Below, one piece after another: positions 4,333-41,089 of a DNA stretch of 43,300 bases. The notes under the pieces are model-generated. The model had not been told where the DNA came from. It made no database searches and saw only the letters and a list, made by a program, of their open reading frames with translations. The DNA comes from Patescibacteria group bacterium. GTDB lineage: Bacteria; Patescibacteriota; Minisyncoccia; Phycocordibacterales; Phycocordibacteraceae. Position 1 is the stretch's first letter. Each line of letters opens with the position of its first letter. Position numbers and translations under genes: made by a program. The DNA is taken from assembly GCA_004296925.1 (NCBI GenBank), contig SCVI01000039.1, forward strand, positions 1 to 43,300, read 5' to 3'.

Positions 4333-4434
4333 TGGCTGCAGGGGAAGGAATCGAACCCTCATTGGCCCTTTTCAGAAGACTCTTAAATTAAAGTCCTCTG
4401 AGAAGGGGCTGTTCTGCCATTAAACTAACCCGCA
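4333..4434 (-). tRNA. tRNA-Gln-like gene with a ~27-28 nt insertion in the anticodon arm (probable anticodon CTG)
   Basis: U1-A72, G73, encoded CCA, D arm GTTT/AATGGCA/GAAC, T arm GAGGG-TTCGATT-CCTTC; 102 nt long; TTCTGAA in the 3' part of the arm. Confidence 0.75.
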
Positions 4435-7474: not shown

Positions 7475-8935
7475 CATGGAATTGTTCCACGACCAGCTTC
7501 CGCTAGCCGTGCCTTGTTACAACTTACTCCCTGTCACCGAACTTGCCGTGGGTCGCGATAAACGCGAACGTCGGGCATTCCCGGCTCCCTTGAGTTGATG
7601 GGCGGTGAGTACAAAACTCGAGAACGTATTCACCGTAGTATGGCTGACCTACGATTACTAGCGATTCCAGCTTCAAGAGGTCGAGTTGCAGACCTCTATC
7701 CGTACTGAGGACGCGTTTTGGGATTTGCTCCACCTTACGGTATTGCTTCCTTTTGTCGCGCCCATTGTATCACGTGTGCAGCCCAAGACATCAGAGGGAC
7801 ATGCTGATCTGGCGTCATCCCCACCTTCCTCTCCCGTGAGGGAGCAGTCTCGCCTGACATTTAAAACAGACAACGGGGGTTGCGTTCGTTTACCCACTTA
7901 AGGGAACAGCTCAAGCCACGAACTGACGACGACCATGCATCACCTGCTATACACCCTCGAAGGCTGACTTCCTTTCGGAAGCCGTGCAGTATAGTTTCTA
8001 GTCTTGGTAAGGTTCTTCGCTTACCTACGAATTAAGCCACATGATCCACCGCTTGTGCGAGTTCCCGTCTATTCCTTTGAGTTTTAGTCTTGCGACCGTA
8101 CTACCCAGGCGGTTCCCTTAACGCGTTAGCTTCGCCACGAAGAGGGTCGATACTCCTCATAGCCAGGGAACATAGTTTAGGGCGTGGACTACAAGGGTAT
8201 CTAATCCTTTTCGCTACCCACGCTTTCGTGCCTCAGTGTCAGGAATGTCCCAGTACGCTGCCTTCGCATTCGGTGTTCCCCATGATATCAACGGATTTCA
8301 CCCCTACACCATGAGTTCCACGTACCTCTTACATCCTCTAGCGTTACCGTTTCCCCTCGAGCCTTCGGGTTGAGCCCGAAGGATTTAAAAGAGGACTAAT
8401 AACACCACCTACGCACCCTTTACGCCCAGTAATTCCGGATAATGCTTGGGGCCTCTGTATTACCGCTCCTGCTGGCACAGAGTTAGGAGCCCCTTATTCA
8501 TGAGGTACTGTCAAAACTTCATCCCTCATAAAAGATGTTTACGCCCCGAAGGACTTCATCCACCACGCGGCGTCGCTCCGTCAGACTTTCGTCCATTGCG
8601 GAAGATTCTCGACTGCGGCCTCCCGTAGGAGTAAGGACCGTATCTCAGTTCCATCGGTGGGGGTCAGCCTCTCAGCTCCCCTAAACGTCATAGCCTTGGT
8701 GAGCCATTACCTCACCAACTAGCTGATATTACGCAGGCTCCTCCTAGAGCGGATTGCTCCTTTACACCTTAGTGACCATCGGGAATTGCGCCATCTTTCG
8801 ATGGAATATGCCCGACTCTAGGGTAGATTCCTACGCGTTACTACCTCGTCTGCCGTGGGTCTAAACCCACTCGACTTGCATGCCTTATCCACGCCGCCAG
8901 CATTCATCCTGAGCTAGGATCAAACTCTAAGTAAG
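7475..8935 (-). rRNA. rrs: 16S rRNA, unlinked from 23S; no intron; non-canonical 3' tail
   Basis: AGAGTTTGATCCTAGCTCAG, GTGCCAGCAGGAGCGGTAA and AAGTTGTAACAAGG conserved sites; flanking processing stem 7327-7348/8972-8993; ends approximate. Confidence 0.98.
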
Positions 8936-20422: not shown

Positions 20423-20459
20423 TTTTTATATCAAATTCTCTGTTCTGGCGACTAGCTAC
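20423..20459 (-). repeat. 37-bp duplicate of the 5S rRNA 3' end and trailer
   Basis: Matches 20621-20657 with one mismatch. Confidence 0.85.
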
Positions 20460-20593
20460 CGGCAAGTGAGTGAGTGTAATGGAAAGCTTACTTACCAATT
20501 ACCGAACGAGCGACGCCGGAAAGAATTTCGGCTCTGAGAAATTCTTACTCTCCCAAACACATAGATGGTAGTCGCCGGTTGTCGGCATTATAT

Positions 20594-20625
20594 AAAAACA
20601 CCGACTGTTTAGAGTCGGTGTTTTT
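20594..20625 (-). terminator. Intrinsic terminator after 5S
   Basis: AAAACACCGACT-loop-AGTCGGTGTTTTT. Confidence 0.8.
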
Positions 20626-20638
20626 ATATCAAATCCTC

Positions 20639-20749
20639 TGTTCTGGCGACTAGCTACTCTCCCCTTTCGAGTACCATCGCCACAATTGCGCTTAACTTCC
20701 GAGTTCGGAATGGGATCGGGTGTGACCACAACGTCAAGTCACCAGAACA
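20639..20749 (-). rRNA. rrf: 5S rRNA
   Basis: CACCCGATCCCATTCCGAACTCGGAAGTTAAG and GATGGTAC motifs; helix I TTCTGGTGAC/GTCGCCAGAA. Confidence 0.96.
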
Positions 20750-20961
20750 CAAAATTCGATACACACTACACAATGTTGTGTAGTACTACCTATCATCATA
20801 AAGAGAACACCGAGCACAAATAGAGCTTGTTATGGATTTCCACGCTTCCCCGCAGAATGGACGAATTAGTACTTCTCAGCTCAATGCATTGCTGCATGTA
20901 CACTTAAAGCCTATCAACGTGATCATCTCTCACGAGTCTCAACGATACCTAATCTTGGAGG

Positions 20962-21000
<39 letters not shown>

Positions 21001-21137
21001 CGACATAGCTACTCTGCAATGCTCCTGGCGGAACAACAGATAGACCAGAGGTCAGTTCATCCCGGTCCTCTCGTACTAAGGACGACTCTCCTCAAGTATC
21101 AACGCTCATAGTAGATAGGAGACCAACCTGTCTCACG

Positions 21138-21632
21138 CACTTCGTTTCGTGTGTGTTAGAAACACACACGAGCGTTCCTTACGGAACCCCAAATTACTTT
21201 GGGAGTCGGACTGTAACTTCATCCTTCAATTTTTTTACAAAAATTGTGTTGGATGATCAACATTCAGTCTCTCGAGGCTAAGCAGCTCTGAGTACTGAGT
21301 TCCAAGTCTAGAGTTAAAAACTCTGGACTCAAAACTAGAAACTCTGAACTAACTCATTCCTTCGATATTGTCCTACCAAAGTAGGATTTCATCGATATTA
21401 GTTGATTTCTTCACCCACATTCCTATAGGTGACCGCCGTGATTATGATTGACTCTTCTCACCCGACCAGTAATCGGGCTTCGATTTAAAAATCGAATATT
21501 ATATTTCTAAGACGAAAAAACTTTCAATAACTCTCTCTATGGGGTTCAGACTGTGAAATTGTCCAGAGTATTGAGTTCAGAGTCTAGAGTTTTAAAACTC
21601 AGAACTAGGAACTCGCAACTATGAACTGCTTC
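21138..21632 (-). ncRNA. Group I intron at 23S position 2593 (E. coli numbering), 495 nt, no homing endonuclease ORF
   Basis: 5' exon ends ...AGACCGU, intron ends in G, 3' exon CGUGAGACAG; IGS CACGGCGGUC (21431-21440); P3 AUCAAC/GUUGAU; R GAGACUGAA; S AAGUUACAGUCC. Confidence 0.93.
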
Positions 21633-21664
<32 letters not shown>

Positions 21665-24006
21665 ATGGCGAACAGCCATACCCTTGGAACCTTCTCCAGC
21701 TCCGGGATGTGGTGAGCCGACATCGAGGTGCCGAACTGCGCCGTCGCTATGGACGCTTAGGCGCAACTAGCCTGTTATCCCCAGAGTAACTTTTATCCGT
21801 TGGGCTTCCCCTGCATCTAATGCATAAGGTCGGATCACTATGCTCCACTTTCGTGTCTGCTCGATATGTACATCTCACAGTTAAGCCAGCTTGTGCCATT
21901 ACACGACCGGCACGGTTTCCATTCGCGCCTAGCTGACCTTTGTAGGCTCCTCCGTTACTTTTTGGGAGGAGAGCGCCCCACTCAAACTGCCTGCCACGCA
22001 CTGTCTCCCAGGTGTTTATCCTGAGGTTAGAAATTGCAACACATAAGAACGGTATTTCACTGGCGAGTCCACAACAACCGAAACCGTTGCTTCAACCTCT
22101 CCCGTCTATGCTACGCATATGCGTCACAATCCCAATACGAAGCTACAGTAAAGCTTCTGGGGTCTTTTCGTCTAACTATGAGTAACCGGCATCTTCACCG
22201 GTACTGTATTTTCACCGAGCAAGTCCTCGAGACAGTTTCCAACTCGTTACACCATTCGTGCACGTCTGAACTTACCAGACAAGGAATTACGCTACCTTAG
22301 GACGATTATAGTTATCGCCGACATTGACCAGGGCTTATAAAGACCAGCACATAGTATTGCTACCATGCACCATCCTTAGTTGACCTTCTGGCATTGGTCA
22401 GGTGTCACCCCCTATACATCCTCTTGCGAGTTCGCAGGGAGCTGTGTTTTTGGTAAACAGTCGATTGGAAATCTTTCGCTGCGGCCCCCTAAATTAATAG
22501 GAGGCAGGCCTTATCCCGAAGTTACGGCCGCTGTTTTGCCGAGTTCCTTGAGGACCTCTCACTCGTTCGCCTTAGTCTACTCGACCAGACCACCTGTGTC
22601 GGTTTGCGGTACGGGCTCACACCAACTGAAGCTTAGAAGATTTTCTTGGAAGCGCGCTCCATGCCATTTACGCTGACGAATCAGCGCATTTCCGCTCCGC
22701 TTGGATAGCCTACATCAAAGTAGTTTCTTCCGGATTTTCCTAGAAGATATCCTCACGGCACGAACACACATCCAGTTGTGTGCGGCATGTACAGCCCTCC
22801 GTCTCTCCATCGCATTGGTGCGAGGCCAGGGAATATTAACCCTGTGTCCATCGCGTTCGGCTTTCGCCATTTGCTTAGGCCCGGCTAACCCTTGGTTGAT
22901 TATCAGTGCCAAGGAAACCTCGGTCTTTCGGCGTACGGGGTTCTCACCCGTATTGTGGTTACTTGTGCCGGCATTCTCACTTCCAAACGCTCCAGAATGG
23001 GTCACCCCTTATCCTTCATCGCGGTTTGGAACGCTCTCCTACCGATCATTTTTGTCGAAACAAAAATAATCCCTCAGTTTCGGTACCGTGCTTAGCCCCG
23101 ATTATCTTCGGCGCAGAAATTCTCGGTGAGTGAGCTGTTACGCTTTCTTTAAATGGTGGCTGCTTCTAAGCCAACATCCTCACTGTTTCAGAATTTCCAC
23201 TTCCTTATGATGCACTCAGCGCGGATTTAGGGACCTTAACTTGAGATCTAGGCTCTTCCCTTCTCGACGTATGGAGCTTAGCCCCCATCGTCTAACTGCC
23301 TGATTCTAGCTCTCTGGTATTCGGAGTTTGATAGGGTTAACGAGATTGCTCCCTGTTTAACCCTTCCAGTGCTCTACCCCCAGGAGGAACATCAGACGCC
23401 AGCCCAAAAGCTGTTTCGGAGAGAACCAGCTATTACCAGGTTCGATAAGCTTTTCACTCCTTACCACAAGTCATCCCAAGACGTTGTACGATCTACGGGT
23501 TCGGGCCTCCCCTTTTCTTTCGAAAAGGTTCACCCTGCTCATGGCAAGCTCACCTGGCTTCGGGTCTTACGTACGCGACTAAACGCGCTATTCACACTCG
23601 GTTTCCCTTCGGCTCCAACCTTACGGTCTTAGCCATGCCGTGTACGTAAACTCGCCGGCTCATTCTTCAATAGGCACGCCGTCGAGGTGCAAGCACCTCT
23701 TCGACTCCTTGTAGATGTGTGGTTTCAGAACTATTTCACTGTCCTTACCGGACTACTTTTCACCTTTCCCTCACGGTACTGGTTCACTATCGATCTCTGT
23801 AGATATTTAGCCTTGCCGGTTAGTGCCGGCAGATTCATCCAAGCTATTCATGTCTCGGATTACTCAAGAACGACAACAAGAAAGTGATTGGTCGTTTCGC
23901 ATACGGGACCGTTACCCTCTAGGGTTCTGCTTCCCAGCAGATTCTGCTACGACAATCATTGTTAACTTTCCTTCCATAAATGGAACGTCATCGCCTTACA
24001 ACCCCC

Positions 24007-24128
24007 ACGCATCACATGATGCACGATGCATCAGTTCTGAGTTCCTAGTTCTGAGTTGAGAGTTTTAAACTTCTCTGGACTCGGAACTCTGTACTCTGAA
24101 CTTCAGCATCACATTCCATGTGATGCGT
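24007..24128 (-). repeat. ~120-nt hairpin insertion (IVS-like) near 23S helix 15 with heptamer repeats
   Basis: ACGCATCACATG...CATGTGATGCGT arms enclose GAGTTCT/AGAACTC-type 7-mers. Confidence 0.8.
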
Positions 24129-24173
24129 AGGTTTGGGCTTATCCCGTTTCGCTCGCCGCTACTCGGGGAATTC

Positions 24174-24225
24174 CAGAATCCCGGTCTCTATGCAAATAAA
24201 TTCGCACAGAGACCGGGATATCCTG
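24174..24225 (-). other. ~50-nt hairpin insertion near 23S helix 12
   Basis: ATCCCGGTCTCT...AGAGACCGGGAT inserted between the conserved GGAAAAGA..CAA and ATTCC..AGTAGCGGCGAGCG segments. Confidence 0.7.
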
Positions 24226-24655
24226 TTGGTCTCTTTTCCTCTAGGTACTGAGATGTTTCACTTCCCTAGGTGCACTTCTCGAACACGCGTTCGAGATATC
24301 TGTCGAAGACAGATAGGTTTCCCCATTCGGACATTTTCGGATCAAAGCTTGCTCGTCAGCTCCCCGAAACATTTCGTCGACTGCTACGTCCTTCATCGCT
24401 CTACAGAGTCAAGGCATCCACCACACACCCTTCAAACTTCCACGAGGAAGCTTGAAAACCACATAACGTTACGCTCATTTAATTTAACGAACGTCTCTAA
24501 ATTATGCTCGGTGTTCTCTTTATGATGTGTTGTCAACGAACAGGTTTCTAAGGGAATAAAAAAGGCCGCATTTCGCGGACCGCATACGGGAGCAGAAACT
24601 GCTACCTTTAGCGCCGCATTTCGCCTTTAGTATTAGTACTCATAAACCTTTGTGT

Positions 24656-29479: not shown

Positions 29480-29525
29480 AACAGAGGTCCGACCTCTGTT
29501 TAAATTACAAAGGCCGGACCTCTGT
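29480..29525. repeat. Two REP palindromes downstream of RAYT
   Basis: ACAGAGGTCCGACCTCTGT and ACAAAGGCCGGACCTCTGT. Confidence 0.85.
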
Positions 29526-29543
29526 TTTTGATTCTAGTGCAAT

Positions 29544-30221
29544 TCACTCATCCGTTGCATTTCGTAAAAAATTGAGGAGTTCCTCTAGGTCATTTTGTTC
29601 TTTCATAAAATCTGGGGCTTGATTATAGGCAATCAACTGACGCCATTGGCGCTCACCGACCGAATAATCATAAAAACTTGAATACGGGTAGGTCGCTAAA
29701 AATTTGCGCACCGCGTCGGGATCCTCAATCCCTTTTTCTTCCCAAAGTGGTTCAATAAGAGAGACAGGATTTAAATGTACATATGAAAATATGTATCGAA
29801 AATAAGGGTTCGTACCAACATGACGACTCTTAAAACGTCCCTGAAACAAAACACCGCTATGGGCGTGCTTGGCATTGAAATACATAGTATAGGCAGTTAC
29901 GACCTTTCTCATGAAGCGCGTAATCCCTTGATCTTCTTCTTGCCTCAACACAAAGTGAAAATGGTTAGGCATAAGAGTCCACGCCATAATACTGACGAGT
30001 GGTTTGCCGCGTACTTCTAAATCCATAATATCTGCAAAGGTCCGACCTTTGTATCTGCTAAGTAGTGCGCGAGTATCTACCGGAGCAATACTGTTTGCGA
30101 GAAAAAGGATAAGAAGTAATCGTTCGTAATCTTTATTTGAACGAAAGATTAAGTTCTTGTGAGCGCCTCGATTGTAAACATGGTATGTTTCCCCGATTTC
30201 GAGAGGTTTATCTCGTATCAT
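29544..30221 (-). mobile_element. REP-associated tyrosine transposase (RAYT/TnpA-REP, IS200-like HUH Y1)
   Basis: YHVYNRG, MPNHFHF (HUH), LFQGRFKS and YVHLNPV (catalytic Tyr) motifs; flanked by REPs. Confidence 0.92.
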
Positions 30222-30237
30222 CCAATAAGAATATCAC

Positions 30238-30278
30238 CCACCTCCCCTACAAAGGTCGGACCTTTGTAGGGGAGGTGG
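30238..30278. repeat. Extended REP palindrome upstream of RAYT
   Basis: CCACCTCCCCTACAAAGGTC-G-GACCTTTGTAGGGGAGGTGG. Confidence 0.85.
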
Positions 30279-30380: not shown

Positions 30381-33300
30381 TTAGTGAGAGCGGGTTGCGT
30401 ACAAACCACCTGCAGAAAGACCTGGGACACCGTATCCGTTTGTCCAATCCTGATCTGCACGAGCTGCTGTAGTCGTGGAGTTAGGAGACCAAGCGAATGC
30501 AGTTGCTGAGATACTACCCGCTGCAAGCAATGGGTTAGCAGTAGCACCAGCTGCAGTTGATGGGAACGTTGAAGATCCGAGGATCTTAGTCGTTACCGCT
30601 GCGCCAGTTGCAGATCCAGAAATCGAGCCGCGAACCTCGAAGTATCGAGTTTGGCCAGCTGGAACTTGGATTGCAGTTGCTGTATTACCTGCTGTTGTGA
30701 CACCGATAGTGACGTTGCCGTCTGCTGGTACCGTTGCATCAACATTTGCCTGGAGGTCTCCGCTTGAGGAAACACCCGAGATAGCCTGTGAGTAACCAGA
30801 GTCAGTAAATCCGTAGATTGTTACGTTAGTGACCGAAGCAGTCGTAGTCGCAAGGTTAATTGCAAACTGCGTAATACCTACTGGCCCCTTAGCGTCAGCC
30901 GTTACCTTAAATCGCATCAAGCGACCATCGGTTAGACCCGTTGTTCCGTTGACTGTTGAGTCAAGCGCAAACGTTGGGAACGACTTAAATACACGAACTC
31001 CTGAAGTTGCAGATGATCCTGATGGGTAGATGGTCGTACCAGATGATACGCCCGAACCTTCCGCATTCAAGAAGTCAACAGCGACCAAGTGACCTGAGAA
31101 GGTTACTGGCTCACCTGTTCCTACATTCTGGAAGTTAGCTTTGATGGTAAGAGTCTTATCAGTGTTCTTTACGAGAGTCACAACACTTGAAAGTGTTGAT
31201 GTTGCTGTCGTGTTAGAACCTGTGAAGTACGCCTCACCTACCTGTGTTGCGCCATCCCAAATCGTAACCTTTACGAGGTCAGATGATGATGATGATGCAG
31301 TGTTGGTAAGAGTAAGTCCAACTTTTCTGAGGTTTAAGTCCTCATTAGCTGAACGGAACTTAAGCGCACCTACAGTGACGTCAGTAGCACCTGCAGCGGC
31401 AAGCGTGAAGCTTGGGCTTGAGGCATCAAGAGCAACCGTAGCAGAACCAGAAGCAACAGTCATAGTGATTGTTGCGCTTGTAGTATCTGTACCTGTGATT
31501 GTTGTTCCTGAAGTTGCACCTGTGAATGTGTAGGTAGAAGCTAGACCTGGTGCAAATGACCATGTACCTGCATTCGTTGCCGAACCAGAAACATTACATT
31601 TGATACCGATAGTCTTTACCGTACCCTTTGCAACCGTTACAGGATTATCAAGCGTGAATGTAACAGTTGCAATTGATGAACCTGAAGGATTTACAACGTT
31701 CGAACCAGTCGAAAGTTGTGTTGCTCCATCGAACGCTGCACATGAAGTGAGTTCTGTAACTACACCTGTTGCGTACGTCAATTTTGCTGGGATAGAAGCG
31801 AGGCGAACATCTTCACCTGATTGCGTTGCATCATACTGGAAGTTCGCGAAGAGAACTTGCGATCCACCAGGAGTGATGTTTTGCGAAGCAGGAGAGTTTG
31901 CTGTACCAACTGCGACAGCACCCGCTTTCACAGTCATGGTGTTCATAGAGAACACACCATTTGCTGAGAGAGAGATTGTGTTGCCAGTTGTTTCACCCTT
32001 AACGTTTGTCCATCCAGAAGATGGTGTTGAAGAGACGATGTACGTGGATCCGTTTGTTGAACTAGAATCTACTTTACCGCGAAGTGTATACACTTGGCGG
32101 CCGGTCTTGTAGGTAACTGAGTCAGTAAATGTAATCGTCGAAGCGTTTGCACTTACGTACACAGAGTCAACTGGACCTGCAACAACTGAACCGTTTGCAT
32201 CAACAAGAGTGACATTGGTCAATTTTTGAGCACCAGTTGTAGTTGCTACGTTAAATACGTGCGACTGGATTGTCATGCCTTCACCTCTCAAGTCAACTGC
32301 GTAACCACCGAGAGGCTGGTTAGAAAGGTTGATTGCGATGTTCTGAGCTGCAACTTCGTTTGCTTTACCAATTGAAGTTACTGAAGCACCAGAGATCGTT
32401 ACTTGAGTTGAGTAAACGAATGGAGTTCCGTTTGTGATTGTGAGAGTTCCACGAGATGAAGGAACTGCAGTTGAGCTAGCTGCTGGAGAGACACCATAGT
32501 TGTATGTCTGACCAACTCCGAAGATGTCAGTAGTTCGGTCGATATCGAAGACTACAGTGCGGTTTGCAGCACCTGATCCTACGATGTCGTATTGAACGTA
32601 TACATCTACTTGGTTACCCTTTGCAATTACTACACCTGAACCGAGATTCGTTTCGTAGTACTTACCATCTGAAGAAACAGTGGTTGGGTATGCAGTGCCA
32701 CCTACAACCGTTTGCACGTTTGCGATGTCAGTTGCTGATACTGAACCTGTCTGATTCCATCGGATGTTCTTAAGGCGAACGTCTTCAGAAGATCCTGCTG
32801 TAAGGCGAAGACCTGTTGTCTTGTATGCGGTTGTGCCGATTTCCTTCGTTTGGTTCGTATTTGCTGCGAACGCATTTGAAGTAGCAATCGTCATAGTACC
32901 GACAGTCAAGGAATTGTTGTTCACGTTGTGAGCACCAACGATAGGAAGTGATCCAGAAACGGTTGCTGAAGTGTTAACTGCAACAAGCGCGAGTCCTGGA
33001 GCTTCACCAGCGTACGAAGAAAGAGAAGATGCCATGTTTCCTGCGAGCAAGAAAGTCTTGGTTGTTCCCTTTGCAATCGTAAATGGTACGCCAACAGTTG
33101 CCTGGTGGTTTGAGTTGAAAGTCTTGGCAACACCAACTTGCATTCCTGTTGATTCGTCAACGAGGACGATACCAGCAAATGCAGCGTCTTGTCCGAGACC
33201 ATCTTTCTGTACCGTTACTGAGTTCACTGTTACGTCACCATCGTTACCGGCAGTGAGTGTGAATCGAGTAAACGGAACGCGCGTAGCACCTGCTGGTGAT

Positions 33301-33863
33301 AGCGAGTTTTGTGGTTGTGAACCAGCAGCAACGGTCAATCCTGTTCCCGTTGGAGTCGTTCCACCTCCTGTTGATCCACCTGTTGATGAACCACCGAGTT
33401 TGAACGCTGCTTGCGAGATAGGTCCGAAGTAGCCGACTGCAGGAGAAACTCCTGCTGCCTTCTGCCATGCGGATACCGCAGCTACAGTTTGTGAACCGAA
33501 GTAGCCGGTCGCACCTGCTGGGATCGAGTATCCAGCTGCGATAAGCGCAGTTTGAAGACAAGTTACCTCAGCACCTTTCGAGCCAGTCGTAAGACTGCCT
33601 GTGAAAGTACATGAGCCAGATACTGAGCCGCCTGAGCCGCCTGTTGGGGCTGTTCCGCGAAGCGATGCGTCAACGTTCGAGATTGTCGAAGCGTCAGCAC
33701 CGAACGACTGCAAGAGAGAGATGATTGCAGAAATTTGAGTATCCGTTAGCGCCGCTGCTTCTGCACGCGATGCTGTAAACGTAAACGCAAATCCTGCCAC
33801 CATTGAGACTGCAACGACGAGCGCTGCAACCTTTGTGAGTGAATTGTTTACAATTGAAGTCAT
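30381..33863 (-). CDS. Large secreted Ser/Thr/Gly-rich surface protein (S-layer-like) with peptidoglycan-binding domain and tandem beta-sandwich repeats
   Basis: Signal peptide ending AEA; PG-binding motif L..GS.G.EV..LQ..L...GYFG..T..AV..WQ; repeated 'EDVRL' beta-rich modules. Confidence 0.85.
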   Translation of the reverse strand: MTSIVNNSLTKVAALVVAVSMVAGFAFTFTASRAEAAALTDTQISAIISLLQSFGADASTISNVDASLRGTAPTGGSGGSVSGSCTFTGSLTTGSKGAEVTCLQTALIAAGYSIPAGATGYFGSQTVAAVSAWQKAAGVSPAVGYFGPISQAAFKLGGSSTGGSTGGGTTPTGTGLTVAAGSQPQNSLSPAGATRVPFTRFTLTAGNDGDVTVNSVTVQKDGLGQDAAFAGIVLVDESTGMQVGVAKTFNSNHQATVGVPFTIAKGTTKTFLLAGNMASSLSSYAGEAPGLALVAVNTSATVSGSLPIVGAHNVNNNSLTVGTMTIATSNAFAANTNQTKEIGTTAYKTTGLRLTAGSSEDVRLKNIRWNQTGSVSATDIANVQTVVGGTAYPTTVSSDGKYYETNLGSGVVIAKGNQVDVYVQYDIVGSGAANRTVVFDIDRTTDIFGVGQTYNYGVSPAASSTAVPSSRGTLTITNGTPFVYSTQVTISGASVTSIGKANEVAAQNIAINLSNQPLGGYAVDLRGEGMTIQSHVFNVATTTGAQKLTNVTLVDANGSVVAGPVDSVYVSANASTITFTDSVTYKTGRQVYTLRGKVDSSSTNGSTYIVSSTPSSGWTNVKGETTGNTISLSANGVFSMNTMTVKAGAVAVGTANSPASQNITPGGSQVLFANFQYDATQSGEDVRLASIPAKLTYATGVVTELTSCAAFDGATQLSTGSNVVNPSGSSIATVTFTLDNPVTVAKGTVKTIGIKCNVSGSATNAGTWSFAPGLASTYTFTGATSGTTITGTDTTSATITMTVASGSATVALDASSPSFTLAAAGATDVTVGALKFRSANEDLNLRKVGLTLTNTASSSSSDLVKVTIWDGATQVGEAYFTGSNTTATSTLSSVVTLVKNTDKTLTIKANFQNVGTGEPVTFSGHLVAVDFLNAEGSGVSSGTTIYPSGSSATSGVRVFKSFPTFALDSTVNGTTGLTDGRLMRFKVTADAKGPVGITQFAINLATTTASVTNVTIYGFTDSGYSQAISGVSSSGDLQANVDATVPADGNVTIGVTTAGNTATAIQVPAGQTRYFEVRGSISGSATGAAVTTKILGSSTFPSTAAGATANPLLAAGSISATAFAWSPNSTTTAARADQDWTNGYGVPGLSAGGLYATRSH

Positions 33864-34423
33864 GAGTAAGGAAGTAATTTCTAATGTTCTAACGCAGTTT
33901 GAGTTCGCGCGTAATTAAATAAATGCGCTCGCCTTCACTGCGGGTGCGAGGACACGAAACATTCCAAATAAATTTGAAACATTCGCGAGCCCGCCGCATA
34001 CCTGTTAATAAGCACAACTAAGGAGTTGAACTTTCCGTTATCGTTTGCTCGAAAGAAAAATGAATTTCTTCTTCGCTCGTAGAACGGTTAGCACAACTTG
34101 TAAGTCGAACCTTCTGTTATCACGAGCGCGTAAAAAAATAAATTTATTTACGCACCCGAACAACAGTTAGCACAACTTCATTTCCATCACTCAACAACTT
34201 TTACATTGTTGAGAGAATGGCAAAAATAATTTTTCGTTCGGTCGTCCATCCATCTGCGGGAAAGTGCTTCCGTGTCAGTAAAAATTTGTGAAATAGATTT
34301 GAGATCTATTTCAATCCTGATGTATTCCGGATATTTAATTTTCAAAGTTCAGGATGGGCAGAACCGGGCGCGTCTAAAACATACACGCAACCGAACACCA
34401 AGTACGGGAGTTCACCTATTATA
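33864..34423 (-). promoter_or_regulatory. Putative ~550-nt structured 5' leader with -10 box, boxA-like site and tandem 79-nt motif
   Basis: TATAAT at 34423-34418; boxA-like 34337-34350; AGCACAACT at 34011, 34090 and 34169. Confidence 0.6.
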
Positions 34424-34685
34424 CGTTCCAATATCAACTTCGAGAGATGACACCGAAGACGCATATGTGGACAACATAGACACGAAAAGTCCCCTGTTAA
34501 GAGCTCTTAACGCCTATGTAGGCTTATTGCATTCCACCCATTAATAATACCAGCGAAACCCTTATAAATCAATACATACCCCCTACTTTGCGACACCACA
34601 CAAAAACATATAAAAGGTGTGTTTAGAGTTAAAAATACTGAAGTCAAAACGGACACAAATACGCGAAAATAATGACCTTGAAAAC

Positions 34686-35429
34686 TTAGGCTTTCTTATA
34701 GGTACTCCATCGTCTCTCGCCTTCCTTTATAAGTAGCCCATCACGGACCATTGAGAGTAATTCTCTTTGAATTGTCTTTTCGCTGTACTCAGGCATAGCG
34801 ACAGAAACGTCTTTAATTGAAATAGGTCTTTCTGACATAAGGTTAAGGACAGATTGTTTCCTATCAGATTTGATTCCTGATGAGTCTGCACCAATTCTAA
34901 TTTTTCTTACAGATACATTATCTGTCCTTTTGAATGTCCTTGATGGTTGTCCTATAGAACTTCCCTCTTGATTTGGCTGCTCATCTCCTATGGTGTCTTT
35001 AATACTTGCACTCTTCGTGACAATACTTTCCTGTCTCTCTCCAACAAATGTTGCCAAGGATGCATACTCATCACAGATGAGTTTTGCATTCATAGGAGAT
35101 ATAAGTCCGCCCGATTGAGCCGTCTCAAGGATGCTGGAAATTTCAACGCACTTTGCACTAAAAAAATCGACGCCGGGTCCATTCAATTTATCTTTGTCGG
35201 TCGAACAATTTATAAGGTCAAGTGCGCACGCTCTAAGACGTGTCCTTATAGGTTCTTCGGGAGACAAAAAGCCAGTTATGACATAAAGGGCAGAAGCAAG
35301 TCTCTCGGACTTACGGACAACAAATTCTTGGTTTTCATTCTTAAGGAGAGATTTAATACCTGAACTGGAGTAGACTTGCGATGTCTTAGAAGTAAGTCCT
35401 TTTGAGTTGTCTTTAAAGCTATTGGACAT
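34686..35429 (-). CDS. Hypothetical protein, N-terminal helical bundle and C-terminal winged helix-turn-helix
   Basis: ISIKDVS...YSEKTIQRELLSMVRDGLLIKEGERRWSTY is wHTH-like. Confidence 0.8.
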   Translation of the reverse strand: MSNSFKDNSKGLTSKTSQVYSSSGIKSLLKNENQEFVVRKSERLASALYVITGFLSPEEPIRTRLRACALDLINCSTDKDKLNGPGVDFFSAKCVEISSILETAQSGGLISPMNAKLICDEYASLATFVGERQESIVTKSASIKDTIGDEQPNQEGSSIGQPSRTFKRTDNVSVRKIRIGADSSGIKSDRKQSVLNLMSERPISIKDVSVAMPEYSEKTIQRELLSMVRDGLLIKEGERRWSTYKKA

Positions 35430-40334: not shown

Positions 40335-40910
40335 ATGTCAGTACTTTCATACAACGAAATAGTTCCTAAAAAAGTAATTGTCTACGAAGGACAACCATGC
40401 GAAGTACTTTCTTCGCATGTGTTTCGTAAACAACAACGAAAGCCAGTCAACCAAACAAAACTCCGTGGTCTTAAAACAGGTAAAGTGCTTGAAATATCTT
40501 TTCACCAAAACGAAACGGTACTCGAAGCCGATACGGAAAAACGACCTGCCAAATTTATCTACAAAAATAAAGGGGAAATTTGGTTCACTGACCCTGATGA
40601 TCCAAAAAATCGATTCCAGGTTGCAGAGGCGCTATTGAACGAAAAGGCAAAATATCTGAAACCAGACCTAGTTATTGATCTCTTATTTTGGAACGAAGAA
40701 ATTATTGACGCAGACTTCCCCATCAAAATGGAGTTTAAGGTAACGGAAGCTCCCCCATCAGTGAAAGGGGCAACTGCACAAGGTGGTAACAAGGTAGTAA
40801 CGATAGAGGGTGGCGCGACAATAAACGTACCTATGTTTATTAATGAGGGAGATATTGTTCGTATCAATACTGATACTGGAGAGTATACTGAGCGCGTAAG
40901 TAAATCATAA
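40335..40910 (+). CDS. efp: Elongation factor P
   Basis: PSVKGATA, VPMFINEGD and INTDTGEY.ER motifs; tip loop RKQQRKP. Confidence 0.95.
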   Translation: MSVLSYNEIVPKKVIVYEGQPCEVLSSHVFRKQQRKPVNQTKLRGLKTGKVLEISFHQNETVLEADTEKRPAKFIYKNKGEIWFTDPDDPKNRFQVAEALLNEKAKYLKPDLVIDLLFWNEEIIDADFPIKMEFKVTEAPPSVKGATAQGGNKVVTIEGGATINVPMFINEGDIVRINTDTGEYTERVSKS

Positions 40911-40928
40911 GGGGGCCTTTCTGCTCTG

Positions 40929-41074
40929 CTCAGTTCAGAAATGAAAGTGTGCTTTCATTTCGCTCGCTCTACGTCGGCAGTAATAACAACGCATGGGAAG
41001 GCGTTTTTGTTTCAGCCATCCTCGGCTCGGAAATGAAAACTAAGAAGCTTTCATTTCCCTCGCTCTACGTCGGC
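40929..41074 (+). repeat. Two tandem REP-like elements
   Basis: CTCRGYTCRGAAATGAAA..CTTTCATTTCSCTCGCTCTACGTCGGC at 40929-40978 and 41021-41074. Confidence 0.75.
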
Positions 41075-41089
41075 TGTAAAAGCATAATA

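Follow-up and report, generated by a model that had tools for sequence, protein, structure and literature searches.

Does a tandem, folded 79-nt motif in the leader of a putative surface-protein gene of an ultra-small bacterium belong to that gene as a regulatory RNA, or did it arrive there from elsewhere? The motif lies 146-314 nt upstream of the ATG (33863) of a 1160-aa minus-strand ORF, within a 43,300-nt stretch of a Patescibacteria contig that is called the window here. An earlier note had proposed a functional RNA element controlling the gene. The element is indeed structured, strand-specific and covarying; control of this particular gene, in contrast, does not stand, given the dispersal of the element and the existence of empty sites. 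The two units are very probably head-to-tail copies of a small dispersed family of structured repeats. The coordinates are collected in Table 1.

Table 1. Features of the surface-protein leader and of further repeat copies in the window; R1 is the covariance model of the family.
Feature	Position	Strand	Basis or remark
Putative surface-protein gene, 1160 aa	30381..33863	-	ORF, Pfam; homologue in 29/33 genus genomes
Leader block TATTAACAGGTATGCGGCGGG	33990..34010	-	BLAST 90-100% identity in relatives
Module 2 (downstream unit)	34009..34089	-	R1 match 76.5 bits, E 1.3e-13
Module 1 (upstream unit)	34089..34168	-	R1 match 48.8 bits, E 1.7e-7; local fold
Native 9-mer AGTTGTGCT (plus strand AGCACAACT), first copy	34169..34177	-	Kept at empty sites
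Leader hairpin GCCATT...TGATGG	34184..34221	-	Just upstream of array; conserved genus-wide with or without modules
TATAAT	34418..34423	-	Kept in 9/11 aligned leaders; putative -10 box
Module copy	20457..20547	+	R1 44.7 bits; behind rRNA-operon terminator, antisense to 5S
Two head-to-tail module copies	40897..41078	-	R1 32.1 and 25.1 bits; Pfam for neighbours

Within 33860-34700 the plus-strand 9-mer has exactly three copies, at 34011, 34090 and 34169, with spacings of 79 and 79 nt. Compared without gaps, the two full 79-nt units (34177-34099 and 34098-34020 on the minus strand) agree at 51/79 positions, which bears out the description of a diverged interior between conserved ends; Tandem Repeats Finder reports nothing at the units, even with its score threshold lowered to 30, because only the ends are conserved. 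The finer anatomy described for the units is likewise found in the sequence: one compensatory pair between them (CTGTT/AACAG versus CCGTT/AACGG), GATAAC adjoining the basal stem, an AT-rich apex of the long hairpin, ARGTTC and TGCT, and the small hairpins CGACT-TACA-AGTTG and CAACT-CCTT-AGTTG. Each unit comprises, on the minus strand, a 53-nt long hairpin and a 22-nt small hairpin, located at about 34166-34114 and 34111-34090 in module 1 and at about 34087-34035 and 34033-34010 in module 2. Copies 2 and 3 of the 9-mer (34098-34090 and 34019-34011) are the 3' arms of the small hairpins. The fold energy of 34005-34185 is -56.3 kcal/mol on the minus strand (z = -4.37, equalled by 0/200 shuffles) and -34.9 kcal/mol on the plus strand (z = -1.58, equalled by 12/200). 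Module 2 contains a CGAGCG/CGAGC tandem G.A core in its long hairpin; module 1 has nearly the same ends and an interior without the GAGCGAG motifs of the family. DNA runs X2 and X5 bridge both units within one contig, and run X4 spans 33741-34387. Population variants from other metagenomes change a small-hairpin A-U pair to G.U at 34027 and a loop position at 34062.

The gene downstream encodes an N-terminal hydrophobic stretch, a PG_binding_1 domain that is its only Pfam match, and then a Thr/Ser/Gly/Ala-rich body. The window's 247-aa ORF has no Pfam match. About 230-400 nt upstream of the array lies the conserved TATAAT, which is absent from one leader (L016), reads ATATAAT in another (L013), and would be the -10 box of the leader promoter. 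The array would probably be transcribed within the 5' UTR of the surface-protein gene. RNA library X20 yields a single 164-nt contig (33756-33919) that ends short of the repeats. The block TATTAACAGGTATGCGGCGGG directly downstream of the array forms the right side of the insertion site described below.

Scanning against Rfam 15 gives nothing at gathering score. At E <= 10 there are only four chance-level matches, to mir-231, rteR, mir-672 and speF (mir-231 22 bits against a gathering score of 50, rteR 22 against 72, speF 12 against 37), and no T-box model matches even at this level, in agreement with the view that the motif is not a T-box. Both homologues and covariation, the lack of which would have told against the earlier note, do exist. 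The covariance model R1 was constructed from 14 leader units. For 14 leader modules of 9 species RNAalifold predicts 24 pairs, and compensatory changes are present in 17 of these. In a larger alignment of 40 copies from 39 sources, itself fitted to the R1 model, 94.3% of cells are paired, compared with 71.0% in shuffles (0/500 shuffles reach this) and 39-52% in slid controls, and double changes occur at 23/24 pairs.

From 5' to 3' the element opens with TAC and a freely covarying 5-bp basal stem, followed by a purine-rich helix and an apical stem-loop rich in A/U. After the second strand of the basal stem come (A/C)AAG, a small hairpin of unconstrained sequence and, last, YTTA, the whole being non-coding and about 70-95 nt long. 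The purine-rich helix sets GAGCGAGYGAG opposite CGARCGAGCG and may be read as up to three tandem G.A/A.G mismatches with G-C pairs between. Different families of the order have the internal-loop motifs in conserved form, combined with covarying stems. The boundaries are sharp: among 50 copies there is T at -1 in 39, a TA start in 44 followed by C in 43, T, T and A as the last three bases in 46, 49 and 44, and C at +1 in 23. Terminal inverted repeats were not found in these 50 copies, the 5' end (TAYTG) and the reverse-complemented 3' end (TAAR) having just TA in common. The fold is strand-asymmetric, with 32 G.U as against 14 A.C pairs, and the given strand is the more stable in 34/40 copies with RNA parameters and in 39/40 with DNA parameters.

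If the array were a fixed part of the leader, the same leader in related species should tell. Modules scored by R1 are present in the leaders of 10/33 genus genomes; those 10 species carry 1 to 3 modules per leader, always in sense orientation, and module 2 is the probable orthologue of the single leader module (L013) of G008. Of 17 further congeners read, 14 have the orthologous leader with no module of this family. The leader is uninterrupted in nine of the 17 (G026, G005, G022, G020, G016, G007, G015, G028 and G021) and is also module-free in G009 and G025; G019, G027 and G023 have other inserts in place of modules, and G004 and G030 have a module-like hairpin that does not score with R1. 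The array spanning TGATGGA to CAGGTATG has a length of 61, 97, 119, 169-178 or 250-252 nt among 11 species. Empty sites read ...TTAGTTGTGCTTATTAG... and contain the 9-mer once; the insertion site reads ...AGTTGTGCT/TA/TTA...

The earlier note had also suggested a search for constant position upstream of homologous genes; the search instead finds copies at unrelated loci. The organism's own 787-kb genome has R1 matches at 10 places with E <= 1, 8 of them with E < 0.03, and the module is found at about eight places other than the leader. Exact 11-mer and 19-mer motif searches of this genome had suggested that the leader element was unique, giving only this locus, a chance match in an ORF (C115) and a match with 3 mismatches, a picture overturned by the covariance model. 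Two other word searches were discarded: the TTAHCAGGTATGCG pattern (1 mismatch, 401 genomes of the order) occurs by chance, at the same frequency as its reversed control, and the 14-base pattern TTANCAGGTATGCGG, a word too short for 596 Gb, returns 120 rows from unrelated phyla. Across the genus 28/33 genomes have R1 matches at E <= 0.01, up to 23 per genome. In other genera of the order there are matches at E <= 1e-5 in 9/139 sampled genomes, the remaining 130 serving as the specificity control for R1, and the other-genus matches whose alignments were inspected, at 4 of the 8 re-scanned loci, carry the family motifs. The family occurs in this genus of ultra-small bacteria and, patchily, elsewhere in the order.

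That the scattered matches are unrelated hairpins is unlikely. GAGYGAG, CCGARCGAGCG, GAAAG and CTTA motifs recur at 20457-20547, at 40897-41078 and on contigs C95, C57 and C37. The copy at 20457-20547 sits within a duplicated ~43-nt fragment of the 5S 3' end, directly after GCTA(C). The pair at 40897-41078 lies between the terminator of rpsR (S18) and the stop of the convergent efp, the last 4 codons of which fall within a module, and the same rpsR-efp spacer is an 8-nt gap, an empty site, in G028. In 7 other genomes, copies with 79-90% identity to module 41078-40984 are found at different places. Further copies are found beside tRNA-Val and between pyrimidine genes. Modules stand in either orientation to the neighbour genes, often just behind terminators, and the sequence directly before an element is YTTA-like, very often a terminator T-run or a stop codon. 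The copies inside duplicated 5S and tRNA-Val fragments lie exactly at a native (C)TA/C; TA(C) flanks both sides of these two insertions, a pattern that suits a target-site duplication and, equally well, insertion behind YTTA of an element whose own end is YTTA. Recent movement is apparent in G066, where two copies in unrelated flanks agree at 98.9% over 93 nt. A third reaches 96.6% identity over 88 nt, and two more have the 3' flank in common and stand behind different terminators. Presence and absence at orthologous sites together with near-identical copies in unrelated flanks, both seen here, are features of a MITE, as are terminal inverted repeats, of which there is here only the shared TA. 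An equal-scoring pair of copies in G025 was rejected as a case of transposition, being a 198-nt segmental duplication.

A transposase or other partner gene tied to the family was sought and none was found. Y1-transposase-like genes are present in 33/33 genus genomes; their number does not follow that of the modules (G018 has 8 Y1 genes and 0 module matches), and R1 matches are not adjacent to Y1 genes in the three genomes compared (G008, G027 and G014). The window's Y1 gene (29544-30221) reaches 40 bits with the NCBIfam model REP_Tyr_transpos, whose cut-off is 80, and is flanked by ACAAAGGTCGGACCTTTGT palindromes, of which the genome has 3, all at the Y1 gene, and which differ from the module family. 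Small GIY-YIG genes are not flanked by module halves (best R1 score 10.7 bits, E 0.58, filters off), no DUF559 gene was found, and an own-genome motif scan reveals no long form of the element with 5' and 3' halves <=3 kb apart. RNase III and RNase Y genes are present in the genome.

The reading from which the question arose, a gene-specific cis-regulatory RNA such as a tandem riboswitch, an antitermination RNA or an attenuator, has in its favor that the motif follows a conserved TATAAT and precedes the start codon of a gene whose expression is probably high, that it folds strongly and covaries, and that no known Rfam family matches it. It is nevertheless largely refuted and now very improbable, as is a protein-binding array dedicated to this gene, because the same module occurs at unrelated loci (5S terminator, rpsR-efp, tRNA-Val, pyrimidine genes) while most of the checked leaders of congeners are module-free and others have 1 to 3 copies. 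In addition the two units differ most in their interior, the expected place of any ligand pocket, neither strand of 33700-34800 has a terminator-like site, and with 146 nt between the array and the ATG direct masking of the start is impossible. Even less can be said for a repeated operator, in which the 9-mer at 79-bp spacing would bind a DNA-binding protein in the promoter region. Three exact 9-mers would suit it, as would the helix-turn-helix-like product of the upstream gene in several congeners, whose conserved C-terminal sequence resembles such a protein as judged by eye only; yet the 9-mer covaries as a hairpin arm in relatives (AGTCGT/ACGACT, GTTAT/ATAAC, ACGC/GCGT), occurs only once in empty-site species, and lies >230 nt downstream of the conserved -10 box, so that this reading is exceedingly improbable. 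A guide-RNA array of the TIGR-Tas or CRISPR kind, processed into guides and with box C/D-like G.A motifs, has the smallest probability of all, close to nil. TIGR arrays, according to PMC12045711, consist of hairpin units in tandem, carry conserved box C/D motifs and occur in CPR bacteria, and are defined by an adjacent Nop-domain Tas gene and free dual spacers between the box C/D motifs. The modules share with them tandem G.A motifs and a head-to-tail order. However, the 97.7%-complete genome has 0 matches to the Nop domain (PF01798), control domains being found, and thus the array is not a TIGR array; moreover the variable parts pair with each other as stems, leaving no free 8-12-nt spacers, most copies are single and scattered, and the period and repeat sizes are unsuited.

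A more serious contender, though an unlikely one, is that the host makes use of the family as an RNA or single-strand DNA module whose GA-rich helix would dock a conserved protein at many loci, for example for stabilizing or processing transcripts, with 1 to 3 leader sites tuning a very abundant mRNA. The loop motifs kept across the families of the order while stems covary, the strand-specific structure, the keeping of modules in genomes of 0.5-1 Mb and the constant sense orientation of leader modules in 10 species all point this way, and the variants at 34027 and 34062 preserve the fold. A generic protein-binding hairpin is possible as a property of the repeat family rather than of this leader. 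Against a host module stands the orientation of the copies: the reliable co-directional contexts are few, about 4 sense and 3 antisense with leader orthologues counted once, and crude ORF calls for 45 matches give 7 sense to both neighbours and 11 antisense to both, a noisy count in that 7/45 matches fall inside spurious ORFs and only the few co-directional contexts are informative. Many copies also lie behind terminators, where little RNA is made; the 14 congeners whose leader has no module do without it; recent identical copies have unrelated flanks; and the genome has, besides the missing Nop protein, no L7Ae over cut-off, only one 16-bit sub-threshold match.

The best reading is therefore a MITE- or REP-like structured repeat, bounded by TAC...CTTA and inserted behind YTTA. 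On this reading the leader units are inserted repeats, not a sensor of the gene, because copies are scattered through the genome and its relatives, and arrays are head-to-tail because each element itself ends in YTTA. At the leader, one element would have entered a pre-existing conserved sequence at ...AGTTGTGCT/TA/TTAACAGG..., followed by in-place duplication in this lineage. The two units have lineage-specific ends in common, the 3' side of the small hairpin being formed in each by a copy of the native 9-mer, and the period is exactly 79 nt because both share this 9-mer. The native 9-mer that ends each leader module is not explained by simple insertion and speaks against the best reading; a comparably long duplication is not seen at the other module copies (50 copies). 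Also against it, the copies of the organism's own genome are old and diverged with compensatory changes. Compensatory changes and kept loop motifs fit selection by the host on each copy as well as selection for mobility, and the leader modules that persist, in sense, in 10 species could reflect co-option.

Full-text literature searches on repeats of CPR/Patescibacteria brought up no description of this family, and its relation to known repeats is one of partial likeness. In REP and REPIN elements a palindrome of 20-40 nt bears a conserved tag, GTAG or CGTC, at its foot, and the RAYT gene is flanked by the repeats. REP/BIME and REPIN elements are known from Gammaproteobacteria, with RAYT Y1 transposases. 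PMC3337134 and PMC3733652 concern such elements. The modules resemble them as short extragenic multi-copy hairpins, often behind genes or terminators and sometimes clustered, that are maintained by compensatory change, as is found here, and that can enter transcripts. They differ in having no GTAG/CGTC tag (the ends are TAC...YTTA in 43-49/50 copies), in their greater length (70-95 nt) with two unlike hairpins, and in forming no inverted doublet, GAGCGAG being same-sense in both arms; the palindromes beside the window's Y1 gene are particular to that gene and unlike the modules, and in the genomes compared Y1 genes and modules do not share a contig region. In Streptococcus pneumoniae the BOX elements (boxA-boxB(n)-boxC) are likewise modular non-coding repeats of variable tandem number in intergenic and leader positions with a stable predicted mRNA fold; compared by description, the inner module repeats in BOX, whereas here the whole element repeats head-to-tail. 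Correia (CREE/NEMIS, Neisseria) and ERIC/IRU (enterobacteria) elements are co-transcribed hairpins cleavable by RNase III, and are small, non-autonomous and dispersed like the modules, which however have no long terminal inverted repeats and fold strand-asymmetrically. Correia elements duplicate a TA target, and TA(C) at both ends of the two clearest insertions would fit such a duplication, as it would insertion behind YTTA. IS608, of the IS200/IS605 type, inserts 3' of TTAC; the modules share with this type the lack of inverted ends, hairpins on one strand, insertion behind YTTA(C) and no clear target duplication, a mechanistic analogy only, as they have no linked transposase and their two hairpins are unlike. 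Finally, the 5' UTRs of S-layer genes (Lactobacillus, Thermus, Aeromonas) are long, structured and mRNA-stabilizing. The long folded leader here, about 550 nt before a major surface-protein gene, is similar, a likeness that concerns the whole conserved leader, the modules being an add-on in part of the genus.

Lying in the 5' UTR, the array would give the surface-protein mRNA two extra stable stem-loops. REP, ERIC and Correia stem-loops affect mRNA stability or are cut by RNase III, and those added here could similarly alter mRNA stability or undergo RNase III cutting, so that an effect of the leader array on the stability of this mRNA may be inferred. A bolder proposal, to which we give a rather low probability, is that the family transposes as IS200/IS605 elements do, in the form of a folded single strand, or else that its helix is bound by a conserved CPR protein. 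With single-strand movement, a host-encoded HUH/Y1 enzyme such as every genus genome possesses would take hold of the GA-zippered long hairpin, and integration behind YTTA would account for the head-to-tail arrays and for terminator T-runs and stop codons as landing sites. With a bound protein, the modules would let the cell control how long its most abundant mRNA lasts. Either would make the family a new strand-asymmetric class of bacterial repeat with the tandem-G.A helix as its signature.

A tandem, covarying, Rfam-negative leader structure resembles a new riboswitch and is here an inserted repeat. Covariation alone cannot separate the two, and RNA discovery in CPR bacteria consequently needs checks of dispersal and of empty sites. 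The family itself is well defined by its covariance model, sharp ends and target word, and hence is usable for genome masking and annotation. Small repeats are active even in genomes of 0.6-0.9 Mb, where they rebuild leaders, gene ends such as the last efp codons, and the surroundings of rRNA and tRNA genes. Close species naturally carry 0, 1, 2 or 3 modules, a series that would be a ready test if the modules do alter how stable the surface-protein mRNA is.

Two tandem modules of about 79 nt, each a long hairpin followed by a small one, lie on the minus strand 146-314 nt 5' of the ATG (33863) of a gene for an 1160-aa protein. The product has a peptidoglycan-binding domain as its sole Pfam match and a hydrophobic N-terminus followed by Thr/Ser/Gly/Ala-rich sequence, and is plausibly S-layer-like. 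The exact 79-nt period of the plus-strand 9-mer AGCACAACT, reported in an earlier note, is borne out, and each sequence detail listed there is found in the sequence or fold. The two full units agree at 51 of 79 positions; their ends are near-identical and their interiors differ, which is why they escape Tandem Repeats Finder. The minus strand folds at -56.3 kcal/mol (z -4.37; matched by 0/200 shuffles), unlike the plus strand, which is not far better than its shuffles (z -1.58). When pairing is confined to spans of <=66 nt, the array folds as long, small, long, small hairpin. No known Rfam family is matched: the leader units give nothing at gathering score and only chance-level matches at E <= 10.

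The structure and covariation of the leader modules, also claimed earlier, are real, since alignment of 14 such modules yields a 24-pair consensus with 17 compensatory pairs and the small hairpins covary (CGACT/AGTTG, ACGACT/AGTCGT, ATAAC/GTTAT, GCGT/ACGC, CACGAC/GTTGTG). Over the family, scattered copies included, the consensus is TAC, a 5-bp stem, (G/A)AGCGAGYGAGG and an A/U-rich apical stem-loop, followed by CCGARCGAGCG(A/C)U, the strand that closes the basal stem, (A/C)AAG, a free small hairpin and YTTA. On the alignment and the familiar sheared G.A pairs, we suggest that the two purine strands oppose each other through tandem G.A/A.G pairs with G-C pairs between them. Over 40 copies 94.3% of cells pair vs 71.0% in shuffles (0/500 as high) and 39-52% in slid controls, with double changes at 23/24 pairs, in an alignment that was fitted to the model and is biased in its favor.

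A covariance model of the 14 leader modules (R1) was used to look beyond this leader. In the same genome (787 kb, 97.7% complete, probably of CPR/Patescibacteria type; 0.4-1.4 Mb across genus and order) it matches the loci in the table and one further, weak site, and the scattered copies align with common sequence motifs, beyond mere hairpins. Matches at E <= 0.01 occur in 28/33 genomes of the genus (maximum 23 per genome), and at E <= 1e-5 in 9/139 sampled genomes of other genera of the order, where the aligned matches have the family motifs; R1 is specific, because 130 sampled genomes of other genera are without any match. The module is thus not specific to the surface-protein leader.

Features of the window and R1 matches in the same genome (C95, C57 and C37 are other contigs of that genome)
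Feature	Position	Strand
Module 1 (upstream unit)	34089-34168	-
Module 2 (downstream unit)	34009-34089	-
AGCACAACT starts	34011, 34090, 34169	+
Surface-protein gene	30381-33863	-
Its leader	33864-34480	-
Conserved TATAAT	34423-34418	-
Module 1 apex	34126-34143	-
TTTATTTAATT hairpin	33907-33924	-
RNA-library contig	33756-33919	
R1 match	20457-20547	+
R1 match, tandem pair	40984-41078 and 40897-40982	-
R1 match	C95:12183-12257	-
R1 match	C95:4159-4247	+
R1 match	C57:7110-7187	+
R1 match	C37:5376-5452	+
5S rRNA end duplication	20424-20663	
tRNA-Val partial copy	C57:7100-7207	
Y1 transposase gene	29544-30221	-
ACAAAGGTCGGACCTTTGT palindromes, flanking	29480-29526, 30238-30278	
ACAAAGGTCGGACCTTTGT palindrome, inside	30032-30053	
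16S, 23S rRNA	7475-8935, 20641-24444	
tRNA match	4336-4434	

BLAST finds the homologous intergenic region before the same gene in 10 congeners, conserved over its entire length of ~650 nt. The upstream terminator comes first, then a TCCACA box and TATAAT; several conserved blocks and a GCCATT...TGATGG hairpin precede a variable stretch, and directly 3' of that stretch stands the very conserved block TTAACAGGTATGCGG, with further hairpins between it and the ATG. The variable stretch measures 61, 97, 119, 169-178 or 250-252 nt in 11 species, and in 9 of these contains one to three long hairpin + small hairpin units. The leader (with its relatives L273-L286) is conserved across the genus in its own right, its parts being the TCCACA box, a TATAAT/TATACT box, CTGAAGCAC(T)TTCCC, ACGGTTGGACGA, a GCCAT...ATGG hairpin and TTAGTTGTGCTTATTAG, and clades differ by extra hairpin blocks.

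At the leader site of 17 further congeners (14 fetched, with G021, G030 and G001), the native sequence is unbroken in nine, as ...GGAA(A)TTAGTTGTGCTTATTAG... in G026, G005, G022 and G020 and as close variants in G016, G007, G015, G028 and G021. The site is also without a module in G009 and G025, other inserts occupy it in G019, G027 and G023, G004 and G030 have one module-like hairpin each with no R1 score, and in G001 an R1 module lies 140 nt 5' of the gene. R1 leader modules are present in 10/33 genomes of the genus, and the gene itself in 29/33. The leader appears to serve as a landing pad for inserts of different kinds (G019/G027, G023). The homologues and covariation that the earlier note asked for exist, but the homologues are not restricted to this gene's leader; a gene-specific riboswitch or antitermination RNA, as earlier proposed, is not supported, given R1 modules at unrelated loci and empty leader sites in congeners.

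Insertion is seen elsewhere. The spacer between rpsR and efp (both Pfam-confirmed) holds two modules here (188 nt) vs none in G028 (8-nt gap), and the last four codons and stop of efp lie inside a module. Five other congeners have other sequence in this spacer, a short repeat of AGCTAG/AGCTGG/ACCTAG words, e.g. CTAGAAGCTAGCACCTAGAACC (G014, G017, G029, G006 and G032; L236, L238-L241). Genome G066 has a pair of copies with 98.9% identity over 93 nt and unrelated flanks, a third copy with 96.6% identity over 88 nt, and two others that have only the 3' flank in common, each behind a different terminator. Among 50 copies, T immediately precedes the element in 39, the element starts with TA in 44 with C next in 43, its final three bases are T, T and A in 46, 49 and 44, and C follows directly in 23; both junctions are therefore YTTA(C). 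Two copies interrupt short duplications of parts of stable-RNA genes, in each case precisely at native (C)TA|C: ~43 nt of the 5S rRNA 3' end with downstream flank, duplicated 200 nt away, and nt 1-28 of tRNA-Val, with the module in the D-loop ~50 nt upstream of the intact gene. By crude ORF calls, 10/45 copies overlap through their YTTA terminus with the last bases of a convergent ORF, and in 5 of those 10 the element's TTA is the TAA stop of that ORF. Among stable-RNA genes of the window, 16S and 23S share a strand and are separated by ~12 kb, an unusual arrangement, and the 23S match spans 3596 nt on a 2925-nt model, so carries ~670 nt of insertions. A 99-nt Rfam tRNA match (32.7 bits) possibly represents a tRNA gene interrupted by an insertion or intron; ARAGORN reports no tRNA anywhere in the window.

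In 34/40 copies under RNA parameters and 39/40 under DNA parameters, the strand on which the element is defined folds more stably than its complement, and G.U pairs are commoner than A.C pairs (32 vs 14), so constraint falls on a single strand, either as RNA or as single-stranded DNA. Many copies stand behind terminators, which argues against an obligatory RNA role. Orientation to neighboring genes is mixed, 7 sense to both and 11 antisense to both among 45 matches by crude ORF calls that place 7/45 within spurious ORFs; with flanking ORFs of at least 150 aa and leader orthologues counted once, ~4 sense vs 3 antisense are too few to decide.

The placement of the module, directly after a short T-rich word and with no inverted ends, resembles IS200/IS605 insertion; none of the enzymes checked could be linked to it. 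Y1-transposase-like genes occur in 33/33 genomes of the genus (1 to 8 homologues each), but could not be tied to the family: their number does not track module number, and in the three genomes compared (G008, G027, G014) they are not near any module. A 225-aa Y1 (IS200-like) gene adjoins the surface-protein gene, with an 80%-identical orthologue in the same place in G017; its top NCBIfam match, under cut-off, is REP-associated tyrosine transposase. GTAG-type palindromes flank it and one lies inside, these three being the only ACAAAGGTCGGACCTTTGT palindromes in the genome; its flanking palindromes differ from the modules. Small GIY-YIG genes have no flanking module halves, and no DUF559 gene was found. 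TIGR-Tas stem-loop arrays occur in CPR and have box C/D-like motifs (PMC12045711), but were rejected, as no Nop gene is present in the genome and the parts that vary here are paired stems rather than spacers. Nearest in kind are REP/BIME/REPIN, BOX, ERIC and Correia elements, likewise small, dispersed, hairpin-forming and entering transcripts, but the module is a member of none: it lacks a GTAG tag or terminal inverted repeats and combines two unlike hairpins with a strand-asymmetric G.A-rich helix. Full-text searches of main texts turned up no account of the family. The structure and covariation are accounted for if the module belongs to a hairpin-repeat family that is, or once was, mobile.

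Module 2 is probably the older copy of the pair, because it closely resembles the lone module of G008. Both modules have lineage-specific ends (AAC instead of TAC, GATAAC, GTTCRACT), and the module 1 interior differs, without GAGCGAG motifs; duplication in place, then interior divergence or partial replacement, would have produced the pair. The native 9-mer AGTTGTGCT already stands at empty leader sites, and a copy of it, serving as the small hairpin's 3' arm, closes each leader module, whence AGCACAACT every 79 nt; comparison of 50 copies found no such long flank duplication at copies elsewhere. At 16/18 positions the module 1 apex matches a conserved hairpin with an AT-rich loop, TTTATTTAATT, near the 3' side of the leader; the match may be fortuitous, given the AT-richness, or reflect past copying between the two. 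Variants in other metagenomes preserve the fold (34027, A-U to G.U; 34062, a loop change). The element inserted here is shown to be a structurally constrained member of a dispersed family.

The array lies ~230-400 nt 3' of the conserved TATAAT, probably within a ~550-nt leader transcript, to which it would add two stable stem-loops; the lone RNA-library contig at the locus covers only sequence outside the array. RNase III and RNase Y are encoded in the genome, so mRNA cutting or protection, known for REP, ERIC and Correia elements, may result.
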